From assembly GCA_043810775.1 (NCBI GenBank), contig JBDRNU010000026.1, forward strand, positions 4,639 to 68,638: a stretch of DNA of 64,000 bases, in the 5' to 3' direction. Numbering within the stretch: position 1 is the first letter of the stretch; each line of letters begins with the position of its first letter. The translations under genes were made by a program, and so were the position numbers. A model generated the notes under the pieces. The model was not told where the DNA came from and ran no database searches. It saw only the letters and a list, made by a program, of their open reading frames with translations. Positions 2,487-53,650 of the stretch are shown one piece after another. This stretch comes from an archaeon. Its GTDB lineage: Archaea; Nanobdellota; Nanobdellia; Pacearchaeales; GW2011-AR1.

Positions 2487-2494
2487 TTTATAAA
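2487..2494 (-). promoter_or_regulatory. TATA-box-like TTTATAAA, putative rpoL promoter (near-leaderless)
   Basis: Palindromic TTTATAAA centred about 25 nt upstream of the rpoL ATG at 2465. The same motif sits at similar distance upstream of other genes here (for example 55666-55673 before aIF1A). Confidence 0.4.
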
Positions 2495-2518
2495 GCTTAT
2501 TGTAGCTGAACATTAACT
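2489..2518. repeat. 30-nt perfect direct repeat, copy 1 (flanks element copy A)
   Basis: TATAAAGCTTATTGTAGCTGAACATTAACT is identical to 2600-2629. Confidence 0.9.
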
Positions 2519-2600
2519 AACTCTATGCAGGGAGTTAATTCAGTGGGCTAATATCTCTGATTTAGTCCCGCTCTTTGGCAACCTTTGGAAAAGGTTGACT
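2515..2600. mobile_element. Hairpin-rich non-coding repeat element, copy A (86 nt; MITE/SINE-like or structured RNA)
   Basis: Starts AACTAACTCTATGCAGGGAGTTAAT and ends AAAGGTTGACT, homologous to 5337-5430 and 41759-41905. Three predicted hairpins and no ORF. Confidence 0.55.
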
Positions 2601-2629
2601 ATAAAGCTTATTGTAGCTGAACATTAACT
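2600..2629. repeat. 30-nt perfect direct repeat, copy 2
   Basis: Identical to 2489-2518. Lies directly after the stop codon (2631-2633) of the upstream minus-strand gene. Confidence 0.9.
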
Positions 2630-4106: not shown

Positions 4107-5326
4107 TTGTATTTCTTCCTAGCTAGCCTGTAAACTGCAAAAACTAAAAGTATAGGTATTGCAGTTAAATACACTAAAGTATAAAACACAAGGTTAAAAT
4201 AATTTTCCTTTTTCAACTGGTCTTCTTTCATAACCCTTAATGAAAAAAGAGTGAAAAACAATCCAAGAATAAATAGCATTATTCCAAAATAAATTAAAAT
4301 TGAAGGTGTCAAGTTTAAATCCTGCATAGTCAAAATAGCTGTCTGGGCATAAATTGAATAAGAAGTTGAAAGATAAGCTTTTAAAATCCTCTGCAAAAAC
4401 AAGTAAGTAAATAATCCCAGCCCAAACAATCCTAAAAAAAGAGATACAACAAAAAATGGCAGAATAAAATACCCCAGCATGTTTCTCCTGAAAAATATGC
4501 CTTTATACTTATTTATTGTCTGTATTCCACCCATATTCCACCTCACCCTCTGCCTAAACCACTTCTTAAAAGTAGAAGGGGCAGTAGTATAAGTTTTAGC
4601 TGCAAGGCACATCTTTGCCTTGTATCCATTATATACTAAGTGCCAGGTAACCTCAATATCCTCAGTCATATTCTTAGGATCAAAACCTCCAATCTCTCTT
4701 AAAGCTGATGCCCTGTAAATGCTCAAAGGCCCGTTAGTCACATAAACAGAATCCACATAATCCAGCATTTTTCTGGTCCATGCAATCACAGTATACTCAA
4801 AAGCCTGCAAAGTTTCAATAAACTTATTATTCTCCCTGACTAGTATGGAATTTGTAACTGCTCCAACCTTGCTGTCATTAAAAAAACCTATCATCTTTTC
4901 CATTGAGTCTTTCAAAGGATAAGAATCAGAATCAGTAACAGCCATTAGCTCTCCCTTAACTAGCTTGAGTACCTTATTCAAGCTATTAGCCTTTCCCAGA
5001 TTTTTCCCATTATCAACTAGTATCAAATTTTTATACTCTTTTTTTAGTTTAAGTATAATTTCTTTTGTCTTGTCAATAGAGCCGTCATTTATCACAATCA
5101 CTTCATATAAAGGATAAGTTGAGTCAAATACATGCCTGATTGTAGTCTCAATTGTCTCTTCTTCATTATAAGCTGGAATAACTACACTTAGCCTGTATTT
5201 CTTTCTAGCTCTTGGATAATCAAAAAGAGTTTTTCTATTTTTAAGATAAATTAAAATAAAAAAACTCATCATATAAATTCCAATGAACATATACGCTAAA
5301 TATATAATAGTAAGTATCTCTACCAT
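4100..5326 (-). CDS. Family 2 glycosyltransferase, processive-type membrane enzyme
   Basis: VVIPAYNEEETI, INDGSIDKT, TDSD and QRVRW (QxxRW) motifs, plus N- and C-terminal TM helices. Confidence 0.85.
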   Translation of the reverse strand: MVEILTIIYLAYMFIGIYMMSFFILIYLKNRKTLFDYPRARKKYRLSVVIPAYNEEETIETTIRHVFDSTYPLYEVIVINDGSIDKTKEIILKLKKEYKNLILVDNGKNLGKANSLNKVLKLVKGELMAVTDSDSYPLKDSMEKMIGFFNDSKVGAVTNSILVRENNKFIETLQAFEYTVIAWTRKMLDYVDSVYVTNGPLSIYRASALREIGGFDPKNMTEDIEVTWHLVYNGYKAKMCLAAKTYTTAPSTFKKWFRQRVRWNMGGIQTINKYKGIFFRRNMLGYFILPFFVVSLFLGLFGLGLFTYLFLQRILKAYLSTSYSIYAQTAILTMQDLNLTPSILIYFGIMLFILGLFFTLFSLRVMKEDQLKKENYFNLVFYTLVYLTAIPILLVFAVYRLARKKYKW

Positions 5327-5336
5327 TTTGAATATT
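5321..5336. repeat. 16-nt perfect direct repeat, copy 1 (contains the GT2 start codon)
   Basis: TACCATTTTGAATATT is identical to 5431-5446. On the minus strand it reads AATATTCAAAATGGTA, with the ATG at 5326. Confidence 0.9.
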
Positions 5337-5430
5337 AACTAACTCTATGCAGGGAGTTAATGAGGTGAGGTAATATCTTACATCAGTAAGATTTAGTCTC
5401 GCTGTTTGCCAAGCTTTATAAAGCTTGACT
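5337..5430. mobile_element. Hairpin-rich non-coding repeat element, copy B (94 nt)
   Basis: The first 25 nt match copy A exactly. Internal 7-bp hairpin ATCTTAC-ATCA-GTAAGAT and terminal palindrome CAAGCTTTATAAAGCTTG followed by ACT. Confidence 0.55.
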
Positions 5431-5446
5431 TACCATTTTGAATATT
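5431..5446. repeat. 16-nt perfect direct repeat, copy 2
   Basis: Identical to 5321-5336. Confidence 0.9.
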
Positions 5447-5503: not shown

Positions 5504-6061
5504 TTACTGATGTTCGTATTTCTGAGCATCCAAAAAACTCTCAGATTTGCCAGAGTTTTTTTGATTTCCAACAGCAAAATAATCATAAAAATTCTCGCTT
5601 AAGCTCAGCTCCTTAGTCCTTCCAGCTTTCTTAGCTCTTATTAAGCCTAGCTCTGCAAAATTCTTTACATGTTCATAAGCCTTATTGCCTCTAATCTTAA
5701 TAATTACAGACTGTTTAACTGGCTGTTTATAAGCAATAATTGCAAGTGTTTCTTGTTCTGCCCTTGTAAACTCAGCTGAACCAGTAGCCAGCCGATTAAC
5801 CATTTCCATATGCTCCTGCTTAACATCCATTTTCCAGCTATTATCCTTTCTCACAATCTCAATTCCAGAATCATCACTATACTTATCCTCTAGCTTGGAA
5901 ATAATCTCCTTTAACATAATAGGGTTAACATCAGTCAGAGCCACTAGCTCTTGCAAGCTAAGATACCTTCCAGAAATAAACAAGGCTGCCTCTATTTTCT
6001 TCAGGCTGTTAATTTCTATTGCCCTGTCCAAATCCTCATTTGTTTTTTTAGATAAATCCAT
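5504..6061 (-). CDS. scpB: Segregation and condensation protein B
   Basis: EAALFISGRYLSLQELV and ETLAIIAYKQPVKQSVIIKIRG winged-helix repeats typical of ScpB. Confidence 0.8.
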   Translation of the reverse strand: MDLSKKTNEDLDRAIEINSLKKIEAALFISGRYLSLQELVALTDVNPIMLKEIISKLEDKYSDDSGIEIVRKDNSWKMDVKQEHMEMVNRLATGSAEFTRAEQETLAIIAYKQPVKQSVIIKIRGNKAYEHVKNFAELGLIRAKKAGRTKELSLSENFYDYFAVGNQKNSGKSESFLDAQKYEHQ

Positions 6062-20959: not shown

Positions 20960-21967
20960 TTAATCCTTTATTTTTGTAAACAAAATCTGTGCCTTTTTAA
21001 TTTTTTGTATGCTAATTGGCTTGTTAATTTCCTCAATCCCTATCTTAAATCCAAAATGCTTGGCTATCTTCTCACTAGTCTCAGGAATAAAAGGATAAAG
21101 CAAAATAGAAATTGCCTTAATGCTGTCAACTAATTCATATAGCTTCTTTGAATCTCCGCTTTCCCATAGCTTATTTTTCTGAACATACTCATTGCAAATG
21201 TCAATAAACGCAAAAATCTCATTTAACGCCTTGTCAAACTGATAGCTGTCAACTAATTTGATTATTTTTTTTAATTTTAATTTTCCAAGCAGCTTGTTTT
21301 GAGTTTTCTCGACGCCAAATTTCTCCCCCAAAGCACTGACTCTTGAAATCAAATTTCCCAGCTTGTTCGCAAGCTCATTATTATGCCTGTCAACTAAAGA
21401 TTGCTCTGAAAAATCTCCATCATCTCCAAAAGGAGTTCCCCTAAACAAGAAATATCTTGCAGAATCAACACCAGCAATTCCAATTAGCTCATCAACATTA
21501 ATTACCTTGCCCCTAGATTTTGAGATTTTTTCCTTATCAAAAGTCCACCAACCATGAGCAAAAACATTTTTAGGAAGTTCTATTCCTGCTGACATTAACA
21601 TAGCAGGCCAGTATACAGTATGAAACCATATAATATCTTTCCCAATCAAGTGAACATCTGCAGGCCAGAATTTTTCTTTTCCTTTTTGCCTAGATGCAGA
21701 ATAATAATTAAGCAATGCGTCAAACCAGACATAAGCCACATGCTTCTTATCAAATGGAAGAGAAACTCCCCAGTCAAAACCTATCCTAGAAATGCTAAAA
21801 TCTTGTAATCCCTCCTTAACTCTGTTAATAATTTCATTTTCTCTTGACTTAGGCAAAATAAATCCGGTTTTATATAAATCAAGAAGCTTTTTCTGATACT
21901 TGCTTAACTTAAAAAAATAGCTGTCTTCCTTTAGTTTATCAACTTTCTCTTGTGTATTGGACAGCAC
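20960..21967 (-). CDS. metG: Methionyl-tRNA synthetase, C-terminal portion (KMSKS and anticodon-binding domain)
   Basis: EDSYFFKLSKY, KISKSRG and WWTFDKEKISKS. Frame differs by one nt from the N-terminal portion, with a 37-nt overlap. Confidence 0.85.
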   Translation of the reverse strand: MLSNTQEKVDKLKEDSYFFKLSKYQKKLLDLYKTGFILPKSRENEIINRVKEGLQDFSISRIGFDWGVSLPFDKKHVAYVWFDALLNYYSASRQKGKEKFWPADVHLIGKDIIWFHTVYWPAMLMSAGIELPKNVFAHGWWTFDKEKISKSRGKVINVDELIGIAGVDSARYFLFRGTPFGDDGDFSEQSLVDRHNNELANKLGNLISRVSALGEKFGVEKTQNKLLGKLKLKKIIKLVDSYQFDKALNEIFAFIDICNEYVQKNKLWESGDSKKLYELVDSIKAISILLYPFIPETSEKIAKHFGFKIGIEEINKPISIQKIKKAQILFTKIKD

Positions 21968-22392
21968 TCATTAACCAAATCTTTTTCAGTAAAATAAGCC
22001 TCACAATCTACACAATAATAGCCCTCATACTGCCCAAAATAAATCTCACCCCTGTCATAAATTTTCTGAATTATTTCCTGCACAACTTTTTCATGGTCAG
22101 GGTCAGTAGTCCTAATAAATCGGTCATATTGTATGTTTAATTTCTTCCACGCATCTTTGAATTTTGGTATTAGCTCGTCGACAAATTGCTTTTCTGGCTT
22201 GCCTGCTTTTTGGGCTGCATTTTGAATTTTTTTTCCATGGTCATCAGTTCCAGTAAGGAAAAATACTTCATTTCCCTTAATATGATTCCATCTAGCCAAA
22301 ACATCAGCTGCTAATGTAGTATAACCATGCCCAATATGAGGTATATCACTGGGATAATAGATGGGAGTAGTTACATAAAATTTCTTTGCCAT
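21931..22392 (-). CDS. metG: Methionyl-tRNA synthetase, N-terminal portion (HIGH and zinc knuckle)
   Basis: TTPIYYPSDIPHIGHGYT and CVDCEAYF...CCPIHKRK. Terminates five codons after the point where the other frame continues the MetRS sequence. Confidence 0.85.
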   Translation of the reverse strand: MAKKFYVTTPIYYPSDIPHIGHGYTTLAADVLARWNHIKGNEVFFLTGTDDHGKKIQNAAQKAGKPEKQFVDELIPKFKDAWKKLNIQYDRFIRTTDPDHEKVVQEIIQKIYDRGEIYFGQYEGYYCVDCEAYFTEKDLVNECCPIHKRKLIN

Positions 22393-22426
22393 GAAAAATA
22401 GAGAAACGCTATTTATTTAAAGCTTA

Positions 22427-24435: not shown

Positions 24436-26979
24436 TTAAACAGCCAATACAATAATAATCAAAATAATTATTATAAGTATTAATACTAGAAAGATTAGAA
24501 CTGCTGGAGTCAGCAAATCCATTAAGCTTCTGCTCCTAGATTGCTTTCCTAAAGGTACACTTCCTGTAGCTGAGTAATTAGTATTTCCTAAATAAACAGT
24601 AGTCCCAGCATTGCTAGGCTCTTGTGTATCTTCAATTGGAATATTAGGTTTAGTAGTTCCTCCTCCCCCGCCTGAATCATCATCATCGTCATCATCATCA
24701 TCTCCAGGAGGGCCAATGCACTTGGCATTTTCACATCCATAAGTGCACTCTTCAACAATTTCAGTGGTATTTGCAATCTGACAAGTATAATTCTCACAAT
24801 CAGGAACTAAATGGTCCCTGACTACATCATCAGCAAAACAATAATTTCCAGAGTAACTCTCATTCCCGCAGTCAGAATCTTGATTGCATTCTGGCTCTTT
24901 GCACTGCCCATCCTCGCATCCATACTCACACTCTTCAACTAATACAGGTTTAGTTTCACTTGAACAAAAGCTGTCTGCTTCTTCCGGATTATTGCAGCTA
25001 AACTCAGTATAATTCTGATAAACATTAGTATGGCATATGCAATATTTCTCACCTATAAAACCATCTTCCCCGCAGTCTGAATCTTGATTGCATTCAACTG
25101 GAGGTTCTATGCATTGAGCATCCTCGCATCCATACAAGCAATACTCCTGAACTTCTGTAACATTGCTAACAAGCCCGCACTCTCCACCTTCACAACCATA
25201 AGATAAATAATCCACAGCCACATTTCCTTCAGAACAATAAGGCAGAGTAACAGCTTCAGCCCCGCAATCTTCTACTATCCAAGGAGTTATACTCTCATCA
25301 CAATAACTTTCAAATGTACCTGGATTTTTGCAAGTATAATCTATAAAATCTTGAGTTGAATTTTGTCCTGAACAGTACTTATCCCCAAAAGGTCCGTCAA
25401 TTCCGCACTCCCAATTTTCAAAGCAAGTAATCTCATCAGTGCACTCCCCATCTACACACTCTTCATTGCACTCCTGGACTAATTCAGTTAGCTTCTCAAT
25501 TCCGCACTCATTGCCTTCACATCTGGGAACATAATGGTCAACTACAACACGGCTATTATCACAATAATTCTCACCATAATAATCATCTCCGCACTCTTCA
25601 TCAATTTCACACTCTGGCTCCAAGCACTGCCCATCCTTGCATCCATACTCACACTCTTCAACAAAATCAGGTTGAACACTAAGATGGCACTCACCATCAT
25701 TGCAATAAGGATTAAAATAATCTCTGTAAACATCTCCTGCAAAACAATAATTATCTTCATAATATGATTCACCACAGTCTTTATCAATATAGCATGAAGG
25801 CTCAGGATAAACAAAAATTTCTTGGATTATTGTTTCATTCAGGTTTTCTTCATAAGGGCAGTTATCTGCAACACCTTGCACTGTTAGAGTATAAAGCCCC
25901 TGCTCTTCAGGTGTCCACGGAAAACTAAATGTATAAGGATTAAATTCATCACCATTAGCTTCCACAACAAAACTAACCTCATTAGTTTCTGTATCATTAA
26001 CTTTTTTGATTTCAACATCAATAACAGTTGGAAGAGGGGTTAAGTCTTCTCCATAAACAGCATTGCTTATTTTATCAGCATAAACACTAACTTCCTGTCC
26101 TGCCTTAGGCATATTATCTGAAAAAACTAAATTATTCAGTAAAGTATAGCACATTTCCTCAAGCTCATCAATAACACTAAACTCTTTTTCAACAGACATA
26201 TCAAGAACTTCCAGGCATTTTTCATCTGTAATATGGCTAGTAACAATTGCCTTATACTCTCCTGCTACTTCAGGAGTCCAGACAAAACTAACACTTTCTT
26301 TTCCGCTGTATTCAATCATTAAATCTTCATAATCTTCAAAAACAACATCATCAGTACTATTAATAATTTGCACTATAACTCTTGTAGCTATCTGATAATG
26401 CTCTAAAATCTCAGAAGGAACATAATCTAAAGGCCCATTATGCTCAAGAGCAGAAGTCACATCTGAATCCAGCTCAGCTTCAACATCTATTTGCAATGGT
26501 TGATGAGGATTTACACCATTAATCAAGCTAAAATTATCAACAACAGCACTGCACTGCTCAACTTTCAGTAAATATTTAGAATAAGGCCCTTGAGGGTCTG
26601 CAGGATTAGTTCCCCACCAAGTTGCTTTTATCTCCCAGGGAACATAACCCTCTTTAAAAAAATAAACGCCATATCCAGAAGATTGTAAATTTGTAGGATA
26701 TGTAAGTTGAATATGATTATCGCTTCCTGAATTTAATATTTCACCACCCCATAGCTCACCGCTAACAGAACTGCAAGCAGAATTAGCGCAGACAAAGCCA
26801 ATTACACTAAAATTATTCACAGGGTTTGTTGTAGTTGTATATGAGCCATCCAAATGAAGTGTTGCTTCATAAGTATTATAATCAATATATCTTGTAGCAC
26901 TAACAAGGAAACAAGCGCTTAAAACTAAAATTATTACTAATGAAATCTTCCAAGGAATTGTATTTGCTATTTTGTTCAT
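24436..26979 (-). CDS. Large Cys-rich secreted protein with C-terminal TM anchor
   Basis: 847 aa with an N-terminal signal/TM. Two W-T-P-E...G-x-Y beta-sandwich-like segments. About six roughly 60-aa Cys modules (C..D.DCG....YC...P.C...C....ECEYGC.DGQC). D9-S-G5 linker followed by a TM helix. Confidence 0.7.
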   Translation of the reverse strand: MNKIANTIPWKISLVIILVLSACFLVSATRYIDYNTYEATLHLDGSYTTTTNPVNNFSVIGFVCANSACSSVSGELWGGEILNSGSDNHIQLTYPTNLQSSGYGVYFFKEGYVPWEIKATWWGTNPADPQGPYSKYLLKVEQCSAVVDNFSLINGVNPHQPLQIDVEAELDSDVTSALEHNGPLDYVPSEILEHYQIATRVIVQIINSTDDVVFEDYEDLMIEYSGKESVSFVWTPEVAGEYKAIVTSHITDEKCLEVLDMSVEKEFSVIDELEEMCYTLLNNLVFSDNMPKAGQEVSVYADKISNAVYGEDLTPLPTVIDVEIKKVNDTETNEVSFVVEANGDEFNPYTFSFPWTPEEQGLYTLTVQGVADNCPYEENLNETIIQEIFVYPEPSCYIDKDCGESYYEDNYCFAGDVYRDYFNPYCNDGECHLSVQPDFVEECEYGCKDGQCLEPECEIDEECGDDYYGENYCDNSRVVVDHYVPRCEGNECGIEKLTELVQECNEECVDGECTDEITCFENWECGIDGPFGDKYCSGQNSTQDFIDYTCKNPGTFESYCDESITPWIVEDCGAEAVTLPYCSEGNVAVDYLSYGCEGGECGLVSNVTEVQEYCLYGCEDAQCIEPPVECNQDSDCGEDGFIGEKYCICHTNVYQNYTEFSCNNPEEADSFCSSETKPVLVEECEYGCEDGQCKEPECNQDSDCGNESYSGNYCFADDVVRDHLVPDCENYTCQIANTTEIVEECTYGCENAKCIGPPGDDDDDDDDDSGGGGGTTKPNIPIEDTQEPSNAGTTVYLGNTNYSATGSVPLGKQSRSRSLMDLLTPAVLIFLVLILIIIILIIIVLAV

Positions 26980-32497: not shown

Positions 32498-32672
32498 GCA
32501 TAATAAAGAAAAAATAATTATTTAAACCTTGTTAATATAATTATTTCATCCTCTCTACTAATGCCTAAATTCTTTCACAATATTTGCCTGTCATAATCTT
32601 TTTTAAATTTTTCCTTTCTCATTCGGAGAGCTTTTCAGCAAGGTTTTTAAGGCAGTCTTAATAAGATAGATT

Positions 32673-41667: not shown

Positions 41668-41758
41668 TTAAAATTAAAGTTTATAGACTTTCCGTTCAAA
41701 CTTCCCGCTTCACCTCCAAAAATAAAAATTCTCGTTCAAATCCAAAAGGCGAACCATT

Positions 41759-41905
41759 AACTAACTCTATGCAGGAAGTTAATGTGGTGAGGTAATATCT
41801 TACATCAGTAAGATTTAGTCTCGCCTCTTCAGAATTCCTTTGAATTCTGAGAGTCGTCAAGAATCTTTGATTCTTGAGATTTGCCAAGCTTTTTAAAGCT
41901 TGACT
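41759..41905. mobile_element. Hairpin-rich non-coding repeat element, copy C (147 nt, extended), abutting tRNA-Ile
   Basis: Same termini as copies A and B (AACTAACTCTATGCAGGAAGTTAAT ... AAAGCTTGACT). A 56-nt internal block adds two extra hairpins. It ends 1 nt from the tRNA-Ile 3' end. Confidence 0.55.
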
Positions 41906-41906
41906 A

Positions 41907-41994
41907 TGAGCCTGCACGGATTTGAACCGTGGACCCCTGCCTGTCTGAGTTTACATATCAGAGCAGTGCTCTAACCTGGCTGAGCTACAGGCTC
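41907..41994 (-). tRNA. tRNA-Ile (anticodon GAU) with a 13-nt intron at the canonical 37/38 position
   Basis: Manual fold: acceptor GAGCCTG/CAGGCTC, D arm GCTC-AGCCAGGTTA-GAGC, anticodon stem CTGCT/GGCAG enclosing 20 nt (7-nt loop CTGATAA plus intron TGTAAACTCAGAC), T arm CACGG-TTCAAAT-CCGTG. Confidence 0.8.
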
Positions 41995-42107
41995 ATAAGT
42001 CTGTAGAAAGCATAAACTCTCAAACTACTACAGGCTCATAAAGAAACAACTTTTCTACCATTTAAAATACTTACGATTATAGAAAAGTAAAAAAATAAAA
42101 GAAAAAG

Positions 42108-42446: not shown

Positions 42447-42509
42447 CCTACCATTTACCTCCTTTTTATATCTTATAATACCATCAAACATTTATAAAGC
42501 TTCGTAAGG

Positions 42510-42518
42510 TTTAAAAAA
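42510..42518 (+). promoter_or_regulatory. TATA-box-like TTTAAAAAA upstream of the eL15 gene
   Basis: Centred about 32 nt upstream of the ATG at 42546. Confidence 0.35.
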
Positions 42519-43154: not shown

Positions 43155-43616
43155 ATGACAGATTTTACTCAACTAAAAAGATATTCTTCCTGGAGAGGCA
43201 TAAAAAGTTTTCAAGACATAAAAAACCTGTATTATTCAAAACAAGCCAGAAGACATGCATATAGTTTTAATTTTGATGAAGCTGTAAAATATGTTTCAAA
43301 AACTTCACCCCCAGAATTTCAAGAACAACTAACTCTCGCCATTTTACTTGGAGTTTCAGTAAGGACAATTATGATACAAAGAGGAAAACCAGGAGATAAT
43401 GCACTTTTATTTAAAATTATGAGGAATAAAGAAGATTATGACAGAGATACAGAACTAGCAGGAAATTCTAGCCCTGAAAGAATTACACTGCATGTAGATA
43501 AGGATTTTGCAGAAATTCAGGGAATTGAAAAAATAGTAAGCAAAGTTATCCCCCTAGATAATCCTTTGCTTCAGCACTATCAAAGATTAAAAGAGAAAAG
43601 TGGGCAAGTAAAATAA
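43155..43616 (+). CDS. Hypothetical protein
   Basis: 153-aa ORF. Confidence 0.4.
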   Translation: MTDFTQLKRYSSWRGIKSFQDIKNLYYSKQARRHAYSFNFDEAVKYVSKTSPPEFQEQLTLAILLGVSVRTIMIQRGKPGDNALLFKIMRNKEDYDRDTELAGNSSPERITLHVDKDFAEIQGIEKIVSKVIPLDNPLLQHYQRLKEKSGQVK

Positions 43617-43664
43617 ATTCTACAATACACAAATTATTATAAAGCAGAAAAAAGTAAAATAAAA

Positions 43665-44087
43665 ATGACAGCATTGAAGCCAGGAAAATTATATAATATA
43701 ACAGGCAAACGAAGAATTATACATTATAGGGAAGAAGATTGTTACAATTACATAATCAATGGTTGCTTGTATGTAAGAGAAGAAGAATTAAACTGTGAAG
43801 TCACAGAAAATACTGGAAAATGGAATGTATTCTTTCATCCAAATCCTATTCAAAGGCTAAGATTTCAGCCTCACTCACTAATTTCACAAGATTCCAATAT
43901 TCTAACAGTTCGCGAATTCGTGGAAAGAGATTTAATGACAGACAACACCACTGGAAAATACAACTTTGAAAATCCTGAAATAATCTCCTTCCTTAAAGAA
44001 TCAAGAAAACTCGCTGAAAATTTGCAAGAACCAAGAGAAAAATCTAGATTCCTAAGAGCACTAGACACACTTTTAGGTAAGCCTTAA
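43665..44087 (+). CDS. Hypothetical protein
   Basis: 140-aa ORF. Confidence 0.4.
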   Translation: MTALKPGKLYNITGKRRIIHYREEDCYNYIINGCLYVREEELNCEVTENTGKWNVFFHPNPIQRLRFQPHSLISQDSNILTVREFVERDLMTDNTTGKYNFENPEIISFLKESRKLAENLQEPREKSRFLRALDTLLGKP

Positions 44088-45863: not shown

Positions 45864-47639
45864 ATGGAAACAAAAAGGGTGAGTTTATTGCTGGTTGCTG
45901 TCATATTATTACTTGCACTAACACTAGTTGCATTTCTCTCAATTAAAAAAGATAAAAATATTCTGCTTTCACCAGAAGAAGATATGAACATTTCTGGGAG
46001 TACTGAAGAAAATAATATTGAGAATATTACAGAAACTGGAAATGAAAGCTCAGAATATAATACTTCTAGTGATGAAGAAATTATAGGATTTTCACCCGGA
46101 AGCAACTGCACAGACTCTGATTTGGGCAAAAACTATTATTTAAGAGGGCAGATAATATTCTCTCCACAAACAGGAAATAATATTTCTTATAATGATTCTT
46201 GTGAAGATTACAACCTCCTAAAAGAATACTATTGTAATGAAACTAATGATATTGAGAATGAACAGTACAACTGTAATATAAGTTGCTTAAATGGGGCCTG
46301 TGAAAGCCTAAACATCTGCATAGATACAGACTTCGGAGCAAACTACAATGAAAAAGGAACAACTTTTGGCAGAAATATAAGTTCTCCCTTGAATAATATA
46401 ACTGCAGAAGACTACTGTTCTGGAGATGACCTTATAGAATATTTCTGTCGTGGAAGCTATATAGATAGCGAGATATATGAATGCTCAAACTCCTGTATCA
46501 ATGGAGCATGCAACTCTTCTAATTGCGCCCCCTCGTGGACTCAAACAAATACCACTTGCAAGTCAAACAATCGCTTAGAAATTTACTTCACAGATTCAAA
46601 CTCTTGCAGCCAAACTCCTCCAGCAAATCAAACAGCACACTGTGATTATGATGGAAACGGATTAATTGGAAACCTTTCTTCATTTTCATCTTCCAATATA
46701 TACCTAAGTGTATATATTAATGGTTCTCAAAACTCAACACAGCAATACACAGGAACCTTCAAAGTAGAATTTAAAGACGGAAATGATGCAATTATTGAAT
46801 TTGACTGGAATTTTGCCAGCCCACTTGACTTTGAAGATATTTATATTGAAAAACAAGGCTCTTCATCAAGCCAGGGATATTTGCTAATTAAAAAAATTAG
46901 TGCAAATAAAAAAGTATCAGTTGATAAAAAAAGTAGCTCAAGTAACTCAGTTTGCGTAAAAAAAGCTGAAGTTAACTCAACATCAGATATTACTTCAAAC
47001 TGCAACGGAACTAATGAAGTCCTAGTTGCCTGTCCTGGAGCAAATTCAGGAATATCTTGTTCACCAAGCAGTACCGACTTTCTTGTTGAGGGAGTAACTA
47101 ACTCACTAATAATAGAATATCTTGGCAACGCAACTCCAGCAGGAGGATGCTCTCCTAGTTGGGATTGTGAAGACTGGTCAGCTTGTGCCAACTCCTTGCA
47201 AACAAGAGTTTGTAACGACCTAAATTATTGCAACACTACCTCTCAAAAACCAGAAGAAAGCCAGATATGTGCCTCTGAATGCGAAGAAAACTGGGATTGT
47301 GAAGACTGGCCGTCAGACTGCCCAAAAAATAAAACTCTGACAAGAGCATGTAATGATTTAAACAGTTGCGGAACTTCAAATGAAAAACCTCTAACATCAA
47401 AAAGCTGCGAACAAGGCTCTAATTTAGGATATATAGTATTAATAATTATTATTGCGTTGCTTGCAATTATAATTGCCCTTGCAATTATCTACTTGCTAAA
47501 AAAACAAAAAGAAGATTCTTCAGGAAATACTCTTTCTAAGTCCAGTCCTCCATTTGGACCTTTTTCTCCGCAAAACCGCCCAGTAAACCCTCCAATGCAA
47601 AGAACATTTCAGCCAAAACCCGGCATTTACAGAGTCTGA
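45864..47639 (+). CDS. Cys-rich secreted protein with C-terminal TM anchor and Pro-rich cytoplasmic tail
   Basis: Signal/TM at the N-terminus. Two C.D(S/T)D.G.NY...C.NGAC modules. Two or three C.P.W.C.DW..C....R.CNDLN.C modules. TM helix YIVLIIIIALLAIIIALAIIYLL. Confidence 0.65.
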   Translation: METKRVSLLLVAVILLLALTLVAFLSIKKDKNILLSPEEDMNISGSTEENNIENITETGNESSEYNTSSDEEIIGFSPGSNCTDSDLGKNYYLRGQIIFSPQTGNNISYNDSCEDYNLLKEYYCNETNDIENEQYNCNISCLNGACESLNICIDTDFGANYNEKGTTFGRNISSPLNNITAEDYCSGDDLIEYFCRGSYIDSEIYECSNSCINGACNSSNCAPSWTQTNTTCKSNNRLEIYFTDSNSCSQTPPANQTAHCDYDGNGLIGNLSSFSSSNIYLSVYINGSQNSTQQYTGTFKVEFKDGNDAIIEFDWNFASPLDFEDIYIEKQGSSSSQGYLLIKKISANKKVSVDKKSSSSNSVCVKKAEVNSTSDITSNCNGTNEVLVACPGANSGISCSPSSTDFLVEGVTNSLIIEYLGNATPAGGCSPSWDCEDWSACANSLQTRVCNDLNYCNTTSQKPEESQICASECEENWDCEDWPSDCPKNKTLTRACNDLNSCGTSNEKPLTSKSCEQGSNLGYIVLIIIIALLAIIIALAIIYLLKKQKEDSSGNTLSKSSPPFGPFSPQNRPVNPPMQRTFQPKPGIYRV

Positions 47640-48062: not shown

Positions 48063-48098
48063 CCGAAAGCTTTAAAAACACCGAAAGATTTAAAAAGA
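48063..48098 (+). promoter_or_regulatory. Tandem 18-nt duplication of a BRE/TATA-like motif upstream of tbp
   Basis: CCGAAAGCTTTAAAAACA followed directly by CCGAAGATTTAAAAAGA-type copy CCGAAAGATTTAAAAAGA (16 of 18 identical). The second TATA lies about 30 nt upstream of the ATG at 48125. Confidence 0.45.
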
Positions 48099-51932: not shown

Positions 51933-53570
51933 TTATTTCTTCCTTTTCTTCATAACTTTTCTTTGAACCTTTACTTTAGGTTTTTCTCCAGGTTTCTTTT
52001 TCCCTTTTCTTTTAGTCAGAAATAAATAAACTACTAAAATTACTATCAAAGCAATAATAAATTTAATTAAATTTTTAGATAGATTCCTATTAGTTGCTCC
52101 ATCTTCTTCTGGTTCAATTCCAGTCTGAAATTCAATTCCAAAACTAGAAGAAGGATTTGTACTCACGATTAGTAGTGTTGTATGTCTTCCAACATCACTA
52201 AAAGTCCATTTAAACTGCACACCATTCCATCCGCTAGCAGTATGATTATACTTATTTCCAAAACTACCTTTATCAAAAACCCATGTAAAATTCACAGCCC
52301 TATACTCATCTCCAACTGGCGCTGCAGGAGTTATAGGAACGCCCCCTTGAATTTGTGAAGGGCAATACTTTCCAGCTATACAATATATTCCAGGATTCGT
52401 GGTAATATTTATTTCAAGTGCATAAGTTCCAGATGCATTAAATTTGACTTCCTGTTGGTCAAAAATCTGGCCAAATGCGGGATAATCAATCCAGGCAAAC
52501 ACCTCTTTGCTATCTACTGAAGGATTAACTACCAAAATACTGACTAAAGTTCTGGCACTAGCTCCTCTTTCATCTGTAACAGTAAGCCAAATTGTCTTCT
52601 GTCCAGTACTTGAATAAGCATGAGTAAAACTATCAGAAGTTTCATTAGTTCCATCACCCAAATCCCACTTCACGCTGACAATACTATCATCTATATCATA
52701 ACTGGCATGTGAAAAACTAATTGAGGAAGAAATACTATAAACACTTCTATTCAAGGGACTAGTGATAATAGCTACTGGAGGAGTATTGTGCTCTTGTTGA
52801 GTCATCAGCAAATTATAAGACTCATTACAAATTGCTAAATTCACATTGCATGCATCAAAATAATACTGCCTATTTTCATTTATACTATCTGAACTTCCAT
52901 CAAAATCTTCATCTCCTAAAACCCAACTAGTAGACTCATAACCGTCTATAGTTCCTATTTTAGAATCCCATAAACCTAAAAATCCTCCATTTTTTTCATA
53001 TATAGTAAAACTGATATTTTGCCCAATAAACCCACTGCCCTTAGTTACAAGTTTCACCCTATCACTCTGATTAGCTACAAATATTTTCTGATCATGCATA
53101 TTATTCCACTCAGAGCCTTCACCAAATTCAAAACCAACCTTACAGCATATCTTAAGATTATAAGCAGCGCACCCTCCAGCATGAGCATTGGTACTTCCAG
53201 ACATAGAACCAACACACTCAAAACTCGGGCTGCAACTCCCAGCTTCATACTGGCATCCTAAATTATCAAAACAAACATCAGTAGCATAATTTGTTAAAGG
53301 ATATTCTTCAGCATGAGCATTAGTGACTGCTGACAATCCAACTATCCCATTACTTCCATCACAAGCTACACTAGAAATTCCAGATTGTGTTTGAAAACAA
53401 GCTATATAATTATAGGTACTTGCCGGCATTGTTCCGGCATGAGCATTTGCAATGTCAGATAATTTAAATAAAGAAGTTCCTGAACAATTAGCACTTCCAG
53501 TAACATCCGCATATACAAAACTAGAAAACAAAATAGCCAAAACTACTAATAACAAAAGCCTCTTTTTCAT
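51933..53570 (-). CDS. Secreted PKD-domain protein with C-terminal TM anchor and Lys-rich tail
   Basis: MKKRLLLLVVLAILF signal is the preferred start at 53570. Three (A/T)NAHA-containing Cys repeats. PKD signature VKWDLGDGTNETSDSFTHAYSSTGQKTIWLTVTDERG. Confidence 0.65.
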   Translation of the reverse strand: MKKRLLLLVVLAILFSSFVYADVTGSANCSGTSLFKLSDIANAHAGTMPASTYNYIACFQTQSGISSVACDGSNGIVGLSAVTNAHAEEYPLTNYATDVCFDNLGCQYEAGSCSPSFECVGSMSGSTNAHAGGCAAYNLKICCKVGFEFGEGSEWNNMHDQKIFVANQSDRVKLVTKGSGFIGQNISFTIYEKNGGFLGLWDSKIGTIDGYESTSWVLGDEDFDGSSDSINENRQYYFDACNVNLAICNESYNLLMTQQEHNTPPVAIITSPLNRSVYSISSSISFSHASYDIDDSIVSVKWDLGDGTNETSDSFTHAYSSTGQKTIWLTVTDERGASARTLVSILVVNPSVDSKEVFAWIDYPAFGQIFDQQEVKFNASGTYALEINITTNPGIYCIAGKYCPSQIQGGVPITPAAPVGDEYRAVNFTWVFDKGSFGNKYNHTASGWNGVQFKWTFSDVGRHTTLLIVSTNPSSSFGIEFQTGIEPEEDGATNRNLSKNLIKFIIALIVILVVYLFLTKRKGKKKPGEKPKVKVQRKVMKKRKK

Positions 53571-53650
53571 ATTATATCCTATAAATCCTATACGTTTATA
53601 AAGTTTACTAATTTCCAAATATTTATAAATCAAATTTGATAATTGAAAGT

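Follow-up and report, generated by a model that had tools for sequence, protein, structure and literature searches.

A 64-kb window (64,000 nt) of contig JBDRNU010000026.1, from the metagenome-assembled genome of an uncultured DPANN archaeon of the Pacearchaeales, contains three copies (A, B and C) of a short, hairpin-rich sequence that is very probably a non-autonomous mobile element. The case consists of three copies on a single contig: they sit at unrelated places with the same ends, next to the same target motif and with no coding sequence, two of them have perfect duplications, and a relative has an empty site in place of the third. The L15e protein encoded in the window is identical to MFH1308355.1, and the next best matches, at ~70% identity, carry the names Pacearchaeota or Nanoarchaeota. 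A preliminary description, made from the letters of the window alone, had proposed three readings, namely a mobile element resembling short interspersed elements (SINEs) or MITEs (miniature inverted-repeat transposable elements), a family of small non-coding RNA (ncRNA) genes, and a portable promoter or 5'-untranslated region (UTR) module; the first of these gave the best fit. Its way of moving is probably one that has no description in archaea so far. The genomes of DPANN archaea are tiny and considered poor in transposable elements, and a recently active miniature element with no inverted ends, a specific target and 16-30-bp duplications is notable in this group.

Coordinates and hairpins are read on the + strand of the window, on which all three copies lie with common ends (Table 1). 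The 22-mer of the left end, TAACTCTATGCAGGGAGTTAAT, occurs three times in the window at no more than one mismatch and never in 100 dinucleotide shuffles. A covariance model built from the three copies was searched against the window with filters off and detected no fourth copy in the 64 kb; the other matches had E values of at least 0.17, and the best of them overlapped the known copies. The three loci of one orientation with common ends that had been proposed earlier were therefore confirmed by position, 22-mer count and covariance model. Their right limit was retained, whereas the left limit was shifted, as the conserved block begins 3 nt further left at ATTAAC. Element size ranges from ~82 to 150 nt. 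In agreement with the earlier claim, no copy contains a plausible open reading frame (ORF), and the sole ORF crossing a copy is a spurious one of 73 aa over C. There are no terminal inverted repeats: the left end AACTAACTCTAT and the reverse complement of the right end AGTCAAGCTTTA are identical at only ~4-5 of 12 positions, and in the predicted folds each end pairs internally and not with the opposite end.

Two copies are flanked by direct repeats. We scanned the window for exact direct repeats of at least 12 nt spaced 25-450 nt apart, and the only close intergenic ones were the flanks of A, the flanks of B and a piece of the 5' end of a tRNA-Ile gene. The repeats are perfect, 30 bp at A and 16 bp at B, which makes both copies recent insertions. 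When A is given boundaries of the type found at B, its duplication becomes 25 bp and leaves junction homology of AACT (4 nt) and T (1 nt); the probability of AACT from base composition is ~0.008. Duplication lengths are accordingly 25-30 bp (A), 16 bp (B) and none (C), the last as already described. The motif GAAY(C)ATT stands directly 5' of all three copies, with 43 occurrences in 128 kb (both strands), or ~3e-4 per position. At A and B it must be native to the target, because the second copy of the duplication also carries it.

The left 28 nt, which hold the H1 hairpin end, are identical between A and B (28/28), whereas the remaining 60 aligned nt have 14 mismatches (23%) and 10 gap columns. 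At 23% divergence, 28 unchanged positions would arise by chance with a probability below 0.001, so that the H1 end must be strongly constrained. Because the duplication at A is still identical at 30 of 30 positions despite this divergence, A was inserted long after the lineages of A and B/C had split. Judged from these alignments, at least two diverged source lineages were active, and C was not the sole master.

The site of C could be compared with relatives, in which the gene order EndoV - LonC - DisA - tRNA-Ile - L15e - DNA ligase - TBP - MCM is conserved. In the window C ends 1 nt from tRNA-Ile, as had been reported (right end 41905, discriminator base 41907). The closest available relative, L002/L004 (GCA_043815245.1), has tRNA-Ile exons identical to those of the window. 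There, TCGCCTTTTCGGATTTGC follows 7 nt after tRNA-Ile, and the window has the same trailer (TCGCCTTTTGGATTTGAAC) beyond C. MAFFT alignment with L004 gave one clean gap of ~146 nt, corresponding to C, between a tRNA-Ile 3' end that does not differ between the two and the trailer TCGCCTTTTGGATTTG, which is conserved. Since the relative joins tRNA-Ile straight to the trailer, C is an insertion or a lineage-specific gain; it appears to have entered the first nucleotides of the tRNA trailer with no long duplication made. The suggestion that C was the source copy, an ancestral master gene linked to the tRNA, was rejected in view of this intact tRNA/trailer junction and the young duplication of A, which came from a separate, diverged source.

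We searched for the element elsewhere. An exact 21-mer scan of species-representative genomes gave no matches, nor did viral contigs (IMG/VR), and blastn in 'distant' mode against phage and plasmid records found none. JGI metagenomes returned one match only, which on reading was a chance similarity inside a transporter gene. When L002/L003 and the syntenic loci of 80 relatives, 817 kb in total, were searched with the covariance model, no match fell below E = 0.27. Rfam reported only four tRNAs at the gathering threshold, and at E values up to 10 the best non-tRNA match scored 19.8 bits against a cut-off of 65.7. The element thus stays, as first described, an unclassified, ORF-less, hairpin-rich family, and a known RNA family was rejected for want of an Rfam match. 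ARAGORN and Rfam detected only the genuine neighboring tRNA-Ile and no tRNA-derived head in the copies. Three further candidates were rejected: a C/D or H/ACA guide RNA (neither strand has the boxes), the template of a diversity-generating retroelement (the differences between A and B are not adenine-specific) and a tyrosine-integrase attachment core (the flanking repeats differ between copies). Casposons are marked by terminal inverted repeats and a 14-15-bp duplication; a casposon derivative was rejected as well, as the element has no inverted ends and has made duplications of 16 bp (B) and 25-30 bp (A) but none at C, the copy next to the tRNA.

All three copies fold into the hairpins H1, H2 and H3 as previously described. 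On the + strand the folding energies of A, B and C are -26.4, -29.1 and -53.2 kcal/mol (z = -3.1, -3.4 and -7.0 versus shuffles), and the minus strand folds with about equal stability. The hairpins are subterminal: 3-6 nt separate H1 from the left end, and 3 nt separate H3 from the right end. The part outside H1 diverges yet retains its hairpins. Over the whole structure, standard pairs fill 97.6% of pair cells, versus 29-53% when the partners are slid by 1-3 columns. The two compensatory changes on which a claim of selection for structure had been based are both present (A:U to G:C in H2, G:C to C:G in H3). That claim is weakened, as covariation at two pairs in three sequences is not significant (the observed score was reached by 54 of 500 column shuffles), and the hairpin argument is suggestive only. 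C also has the two extra perfect hairpins ascribed to it, of 9 bp each, which are similar to H3 modules (YCAAG...CTTGA frame). Copies thus vary in how many hairpin modules they have, with one H3-like module each in A and B and three in C; MAFFT alignment of the three modules of C gave no single register, and no covariation was counted from them.

H3 is also related to the host promoter. The gene-upstream regions of the window yielded a clear and very regular promoter consensus, AAG[G/C]TTTA[A/T]A[A/T], followed after ~22 nt by ATG, a distance indicating that the mRNAs are mostly leaderless. Between divergent genes, this consensus is often palindromic (for example, 22414-22425, 32519-32530, 42506-42517 and 48067-48078). 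The sequence AAGSTTTWWAWA occurs 12 times versus 2.2 expected, a count reached by 0 of 100 shuffles; H3 of B and H3 of C, each matching on both strands, account for four of the 12. The H3 of these two copies is a palindromic match, on both strands, to the host B recognition element (BRE)/TATA consensus AAG[G/C]TTTAWAW, and on the minus strand that of C reads AAGCTTTAAAAA, the same 12-mer as upstream of the TBP gene. H3 of A is still a hairpin but has lost the match, so that the portable promoter or 5'-UTR module proposed earlier is supported in part, by B and C and not by A. H3 may matter as a DNA palindrome or promoter, not as RNA.

The copies share one orientation, and each has a gene downstream of it. 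Pfam identified the neighbors as RpoL, GT2 glycosyltransferase, ScpB, DisA and a weak DUF3795 match, in line with the rpoL, GT2 and DUF3795-like genes named before. Copy A sits just upstream of the rpoL TATA box, which was partly duplicated. Copy B separates the GT2 start codon from the original GT2 promoter, and the duplicated ATG opens an upstream ORF of 6 codons; from this arrangement B appears to be damage to GT2 expression rather than design. As a side effect, B and C could bring a promoter (H3) and a structured leader to the downstream gene.

As for how the element moves, we tentatively favor, as a possible mechanism, an annealing-primed, target-primed insertion of a single-stranded copy. 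This route is preferred to a transposase because inverted ends are lacking, the duplications are unequal and A has the AACT and T homology at its junctions. An enzyme encoded elsewhere in the genome would mobilize the single-stranded copy, either read-through RNA of the gene/tRNA strand or single-stranded DNA (ssDNA). The invariant H1 end, which is the 3'-terminal hairpin when read on the gene/tRNA strand, would serve for both recognition and priming. In AT-rich DNA close to promoters, a nick 3' of GAAY(C)ATT would provide a 3'-OH end, which would anneal to the H1 end (the AACT overlap at A) and prime copying of the element, and a loosely placed second break in the other strand, 0-30 nt away, would give duplications of variable length.

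All three copies seem to lie in read-through transcription units: each is located downstream of a gene, promoter or tRNA of the minus strand, and no T-run intervenes. Other tRNAs of the window are mostly followed directly by T-runs (tRNA-Val, tRNA-Asn); C, in contrast, would be co-transcribed with tRNA-Ile. A narrower version of the mechanism is that the family is the first SINE-like retroposon in Archaea, with read-through RNA copied by target-primed reverse transcription into nicked DNA near promoters, next to GAAY(C)ATT. The RNA would be, for example, the tRNA-Ile 3' trailer, released by RNase Z 1 nt from the element end and recognized via H1. This version would explain both the long, variable duplications and the lack of inverted ends, and we consider it quite unlikely all the same. 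The explanation as a whole, that is, a hitherto undescribed small non-coding mobile family with a single-strand-copy mechanism and a promoter side effect, is plausible and falls a little short of probable.

Several points weigh against copying from a single strand. In prokaryotes, non-intron RNAs are not known to undergo target-primed retroposition. The conserved G-U pairs (H1 13-20, H2 33-68, and 37-64 in B and C) favor the + strand, whereas read-through transcripts would be of the minus strand. Junction homology is found at A only, the junctions of B are blunt, and the copies number three; the absent duplication at C could equally come from recombination between copies. None of 55 window ORFs tested has a reverse transcriptase, nuclease, transposase, integrase, Cas1 or HUH domain. 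Lastly, the duplications have precedents among transposases: those of 16 bp and ~27-30 bp match two classes of the IS1202 family (5-6, 15-17 and 27-29 bp), in which duplication-less copies are ascribed to recombination (bioRxiv 10.1101/2022.12.17.520857), and those of IS1634/IS1549, a family diverse in archaea, vary from 8 to 514 bp (PMC2266710). The element might accordingly be a MITE-like deletion derivative of a DDE insertion sequence (IS), moving as double-stranded DNA in the manner of IS1202 or IS1634, with the two strands cut one to three helical turns apart. Duplications of 16 bp, 25-30 bp and, at C, none would fit, and one strongly conserved end suits a transposase binding site. We nevertheless regard this reading, the main rival, as rather unlikely, since the ends are not mutual inverted repeats, whereas IS1202 and IS1634/IS1549 all have terminal inverted repeats. 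Moreover, only one end is strongly conserved and the other keeps its hairpin shape, not its sequence; two duplication lengths occur within one family, whereas the length is fixed for each IS of IS1202; and the 55 ORFs include no transposase.

It is distinctly unlikely that the copies are structured ncRNA genes, or a promoter-plus-leader module, kept for a host function with dispersal being incidental. Conserved hairpins, two compensatory pairs, folds significantly more stable than shuffles, the position of all copies upstream of a gene in one orientation, the identity of H3 in B and C with the promoter consensus and the predicted co-transcription of C with tRNA-Ile would all agree with such a role. 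However, Rfam has no match at E values up to 10, no homologue was found in the 80 syntenic loci or in any collection scanned, and the relative has no element at its tRNA-Ile site, so that this is not a conserved gene. In addition, H3 of A lacks the promoter match, B splits GT2 from its own promoter and creates the 6-codon upstream ORF, and the covariation lacks significance (54/500). With no copy found in relatives and an apparent disruption of GT2 expression by B, a gene or leader that is purely a functional RNA is unlikely. Members of the IS200/IS605 family are not known to duplicate their target, and the perfect 16- and 30-bp duplications at two of the three copies bear out an earlier doubt about palindrome-associated transposable elements (PATEs) of this type, in which a Y1 HUH transposase, TnpA, moves ssDNA and inserts it 3' of a short motif. 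The hairpins are also nearer to the ends, at 3-6 nt, than in characterized members, and neither TnpA nor TnpB was detected among the 55 window ORFs tested. A PATE is thus very unlikely, even though it would account for subterminal hairpins at both ends with no inverted ends, the short motif (YATT, extended GAAY(C)ATT) left of all copies, G-T-tolerant pairs favoring the + strand and the same orientation of all copies; IS200/IS605 is also the commonest IS family in archaea (PMC13343696). Least credible is a remnant or mini-derivative of an integrase-driven element with the tRNA-Ile 3' end as attachment site and A and B as secondary integrations. C adjoins the tRNA-Ile 3' end, and five relatives (L008, L021, L023, L055 and L060) have inserts bounded by a second tRNA 3' end; yet no second tRNA end bounds C itself, the relatives' inserts are dissimilar to the element, and the repeats flanking A, those flanking B and the tRNA all have different sequences, which makes the repeats target duplications and not a shared attachment core. 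Of the well-characterized prokaryotic routes, namely DDE cut-and-paste, HUH single-strand transposition, integrases and casposases, none accounts cleanly for a lack of inverted ends together with a sequence-specific target and 16-30-bp duplications.

Table 1. Positions of the element copies, their parts and their surroundings in the 64-kb window.
Feature	Position	Strand	Remarks
Copy A	2512..2600	+	89 nt; shortest H2, one H3 module; covariance model 92.2 bits
Copy B	5334..5430	+	97 nt; covariance model 120.4 bits
Copy C	41756..41905	+	150 nt; covariance model 86 bits; no flanking duplication
Inserted segment of B, unambiguous junctions	5337-5430	+	AACTAACTC...TTGACT
Left flanking repeat of A	2489..2518		30 bp, TATAAAGCTTATTGTAGCTGAACATTAACT; includes rpoL BRE/TATA; last 7 nt overlap conserved left end
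Right flanking repeat of A	2600..2629		30/30 identical to left repeat
Left target duplication of B	5321..5336		16 bp, TACCATTTTGAATATT; holds GT2 start codon (5326-5324, minus strand)
Right target duplication of B	5431..5446		perfect 16 bp; just downstream of displaced original GT2 promoter
Target motif at A	2508-2514	+	GAACATT
Target motif at B	5330-5336	+	GAATATT
Target motif at C	41750..41758	+	GAACCATT, directly left of AACTAACTC
H1 of A	2518-2524/2531-2537	+	fold
H2 of A	2543-2571	+	fold
H3 of A	2579-2597	+	fold; AACCTTTGGAAAAGGTT
H1 of B	5340-5346/5353-5359	+	fold
H2 of B	5365-5402	+	fold
H3 of B	5410-5427	+	fold; CAAGCTTTATAAAGCTTG
H1 of C	41762-41768/41775-41781	+	fold; alternative register 41756-41762/41777-41783
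H2 of C	41787-41825	+	fold
H3 of C	41885-41902	+	fold; CAAGCTTTTTAAAGCTTG
C-specific block	41825..41883	+	two extra perfect 9-bp hairpins, 41829-41850 and 41857-41877
tRNA-Ile(GAT), short intron	41907..41994	-	discriminator base 41907; 1 nt from right end of C (41905)
Ancestral tRNA-Ile trailer	41734..41755	-	GGTTCGCCTTTTGGATTTGAAC; now split from tRNA by C; holds clade-wide box GGATTTGAAC

The tRNA-Ile locus has several features of its own. The short intron of the window's tRNA-Ile(GAT) follows the anticodon; the otherwise identical gene of L004 has none, and that of L013 has a different, longer one. The box GGATTTGAAC of the trailer (window 41734-41743, + strand GTTCAAATCC) is complementary to the T-loop/T-stem of tRNA-Ile itself and is located 8-25 nt past the tRNA. 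Such a T-arm-complementary box occurs in the trailers of L004, L008, L021, L023, L055 and L060, following the species-specific T-stem sequence in L008 and L055, and in the window it is displaced by 150 nt by C. On the other side, both the window and two relatives have a copy of 12-14 nt of the tRNA-Ile 5' end (TTATGAGCCTGTAG) at a distance of 43-84 nt upstream of the tRNA (window 42028-42041 versus 41985-41998; L004 ~4451-4524; L022 ~5778-5861), and the segment between the repeats terminates in CTACAGAC(T) in all three. That such a repeat was kept in genomes so far apart points to a function or else to the scar of a very old insertion.

In the five relatives with inserts, tRNA-Ile is followed by 60-100 nt and a second copy of the tRNA 3' end, 14-29 nt long (L008 4896-5106; L055 ~5540-5830; L021 5701-5775; L023 5842-5913; L060 5750-5833). 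L008 has two tandem units of 114 nt and L055 several units of 89 nt. Each insert is confined to a single locus. The flank or trailer of tRNA-Ile is thus a hotspot for small duplicative insertions in this clade.

Other features of the window include a split methionyl-tRNA synthetase (20960-22392, minus strand) in two overlapping ORFs, with Pfam tRNA-synt_1g matches at 1-142 and 173-390; the cause could be a frameshift, a fault of the assembly or a true split of the gene. At 43155-44087, a pair of small ORFs that match nothing in Pfam and have near-identical promoter regions lies between L15e and DNA ligase, genes that are adjacent in the relative L002, and this pair may be a lineage-specific inserted cassette. 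Large cysteine-rich proteins, secreted or membrane-anchored and with internal repeats, are encoded at 24436-26979, 45864-47639 and 51933-53633 and supply most of the other repeat families of the window. GC skew follows the coding strand and gives no placement of the copies relative to replication.

Compared with known systems, the element resembles prokaryotic and archaeal MITEs, such as the MITE-like small RNA elements of Pyrobaculum calidifontis (PMC6009581), in being small, non-coding, multi-copy and intergenic, and in its stable folding, target duplications, confinement to a single lineage and mobilization in trans. It differs from them in having no terminal inverted repeats, only one sequence-conserved end, no known parent IS, and duplications that are long and unequal (16, 25-30 bp) and not short and fixed. 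Like PATEs, it is without inverted ends and has a subterminal hairpin on either side, a short conserved motif at the left end and a hint of strand asymmetry, but PATEs make no target duplication, and its hairpins lie only 3-6 nt from the ends. Stringent SINEs of eukaryotes share a 3' stem-loop with a partner long interspersed element (LINE) and insert by target-primed reverse transcription. The likeness to them includes an invariant 3' hairpin (gene/tRNA strand), the lack of inverted ends and one copy within a tRNA transcription unit, and may extend to duplications of variable length (0, 16 and 25-30 bp in three cases) and to junction homology, seen at A only; unlike them, the element has no tRNA-derived head, A-rich or simple-repeat tail or known partner reverse transcriptase, and SINE-like retroposons are not known from archaea. 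IS1634/IS1549 and IS1202 are similar in making duplications far above the usual 2-10 bp, the lengths of the IS1634 type varying between copies. They are themselves 1.5-2 kb long, transposase-encoding and bounded by terminal inverted repeats, none of which is true of the element; IS1202 is known from bacteria only, and miniature derivatives with no inverted ends are not described for either. Pneumococcal BOX elements are alike in their modular build, variable number of internal hairpins, intergenic location and possible effect on neighboring genes, and differ in sequence, host and the mutual complementarity of their ends. If target-primed copying is correct, non-intron RNAs of archaea would be added to the reach of a mechanism that has been seen as eukaryotic or as peculiar to group II introns; even as a transposase derivative, the element would be a mobile carrier of the host promoter consensus that rewires genes such as GT2. 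The family is of interest for uniting, in a DPANN archaeon, a specific target motif and a carried promoter with duplications that are long and unequal and with ends that are not inverted.

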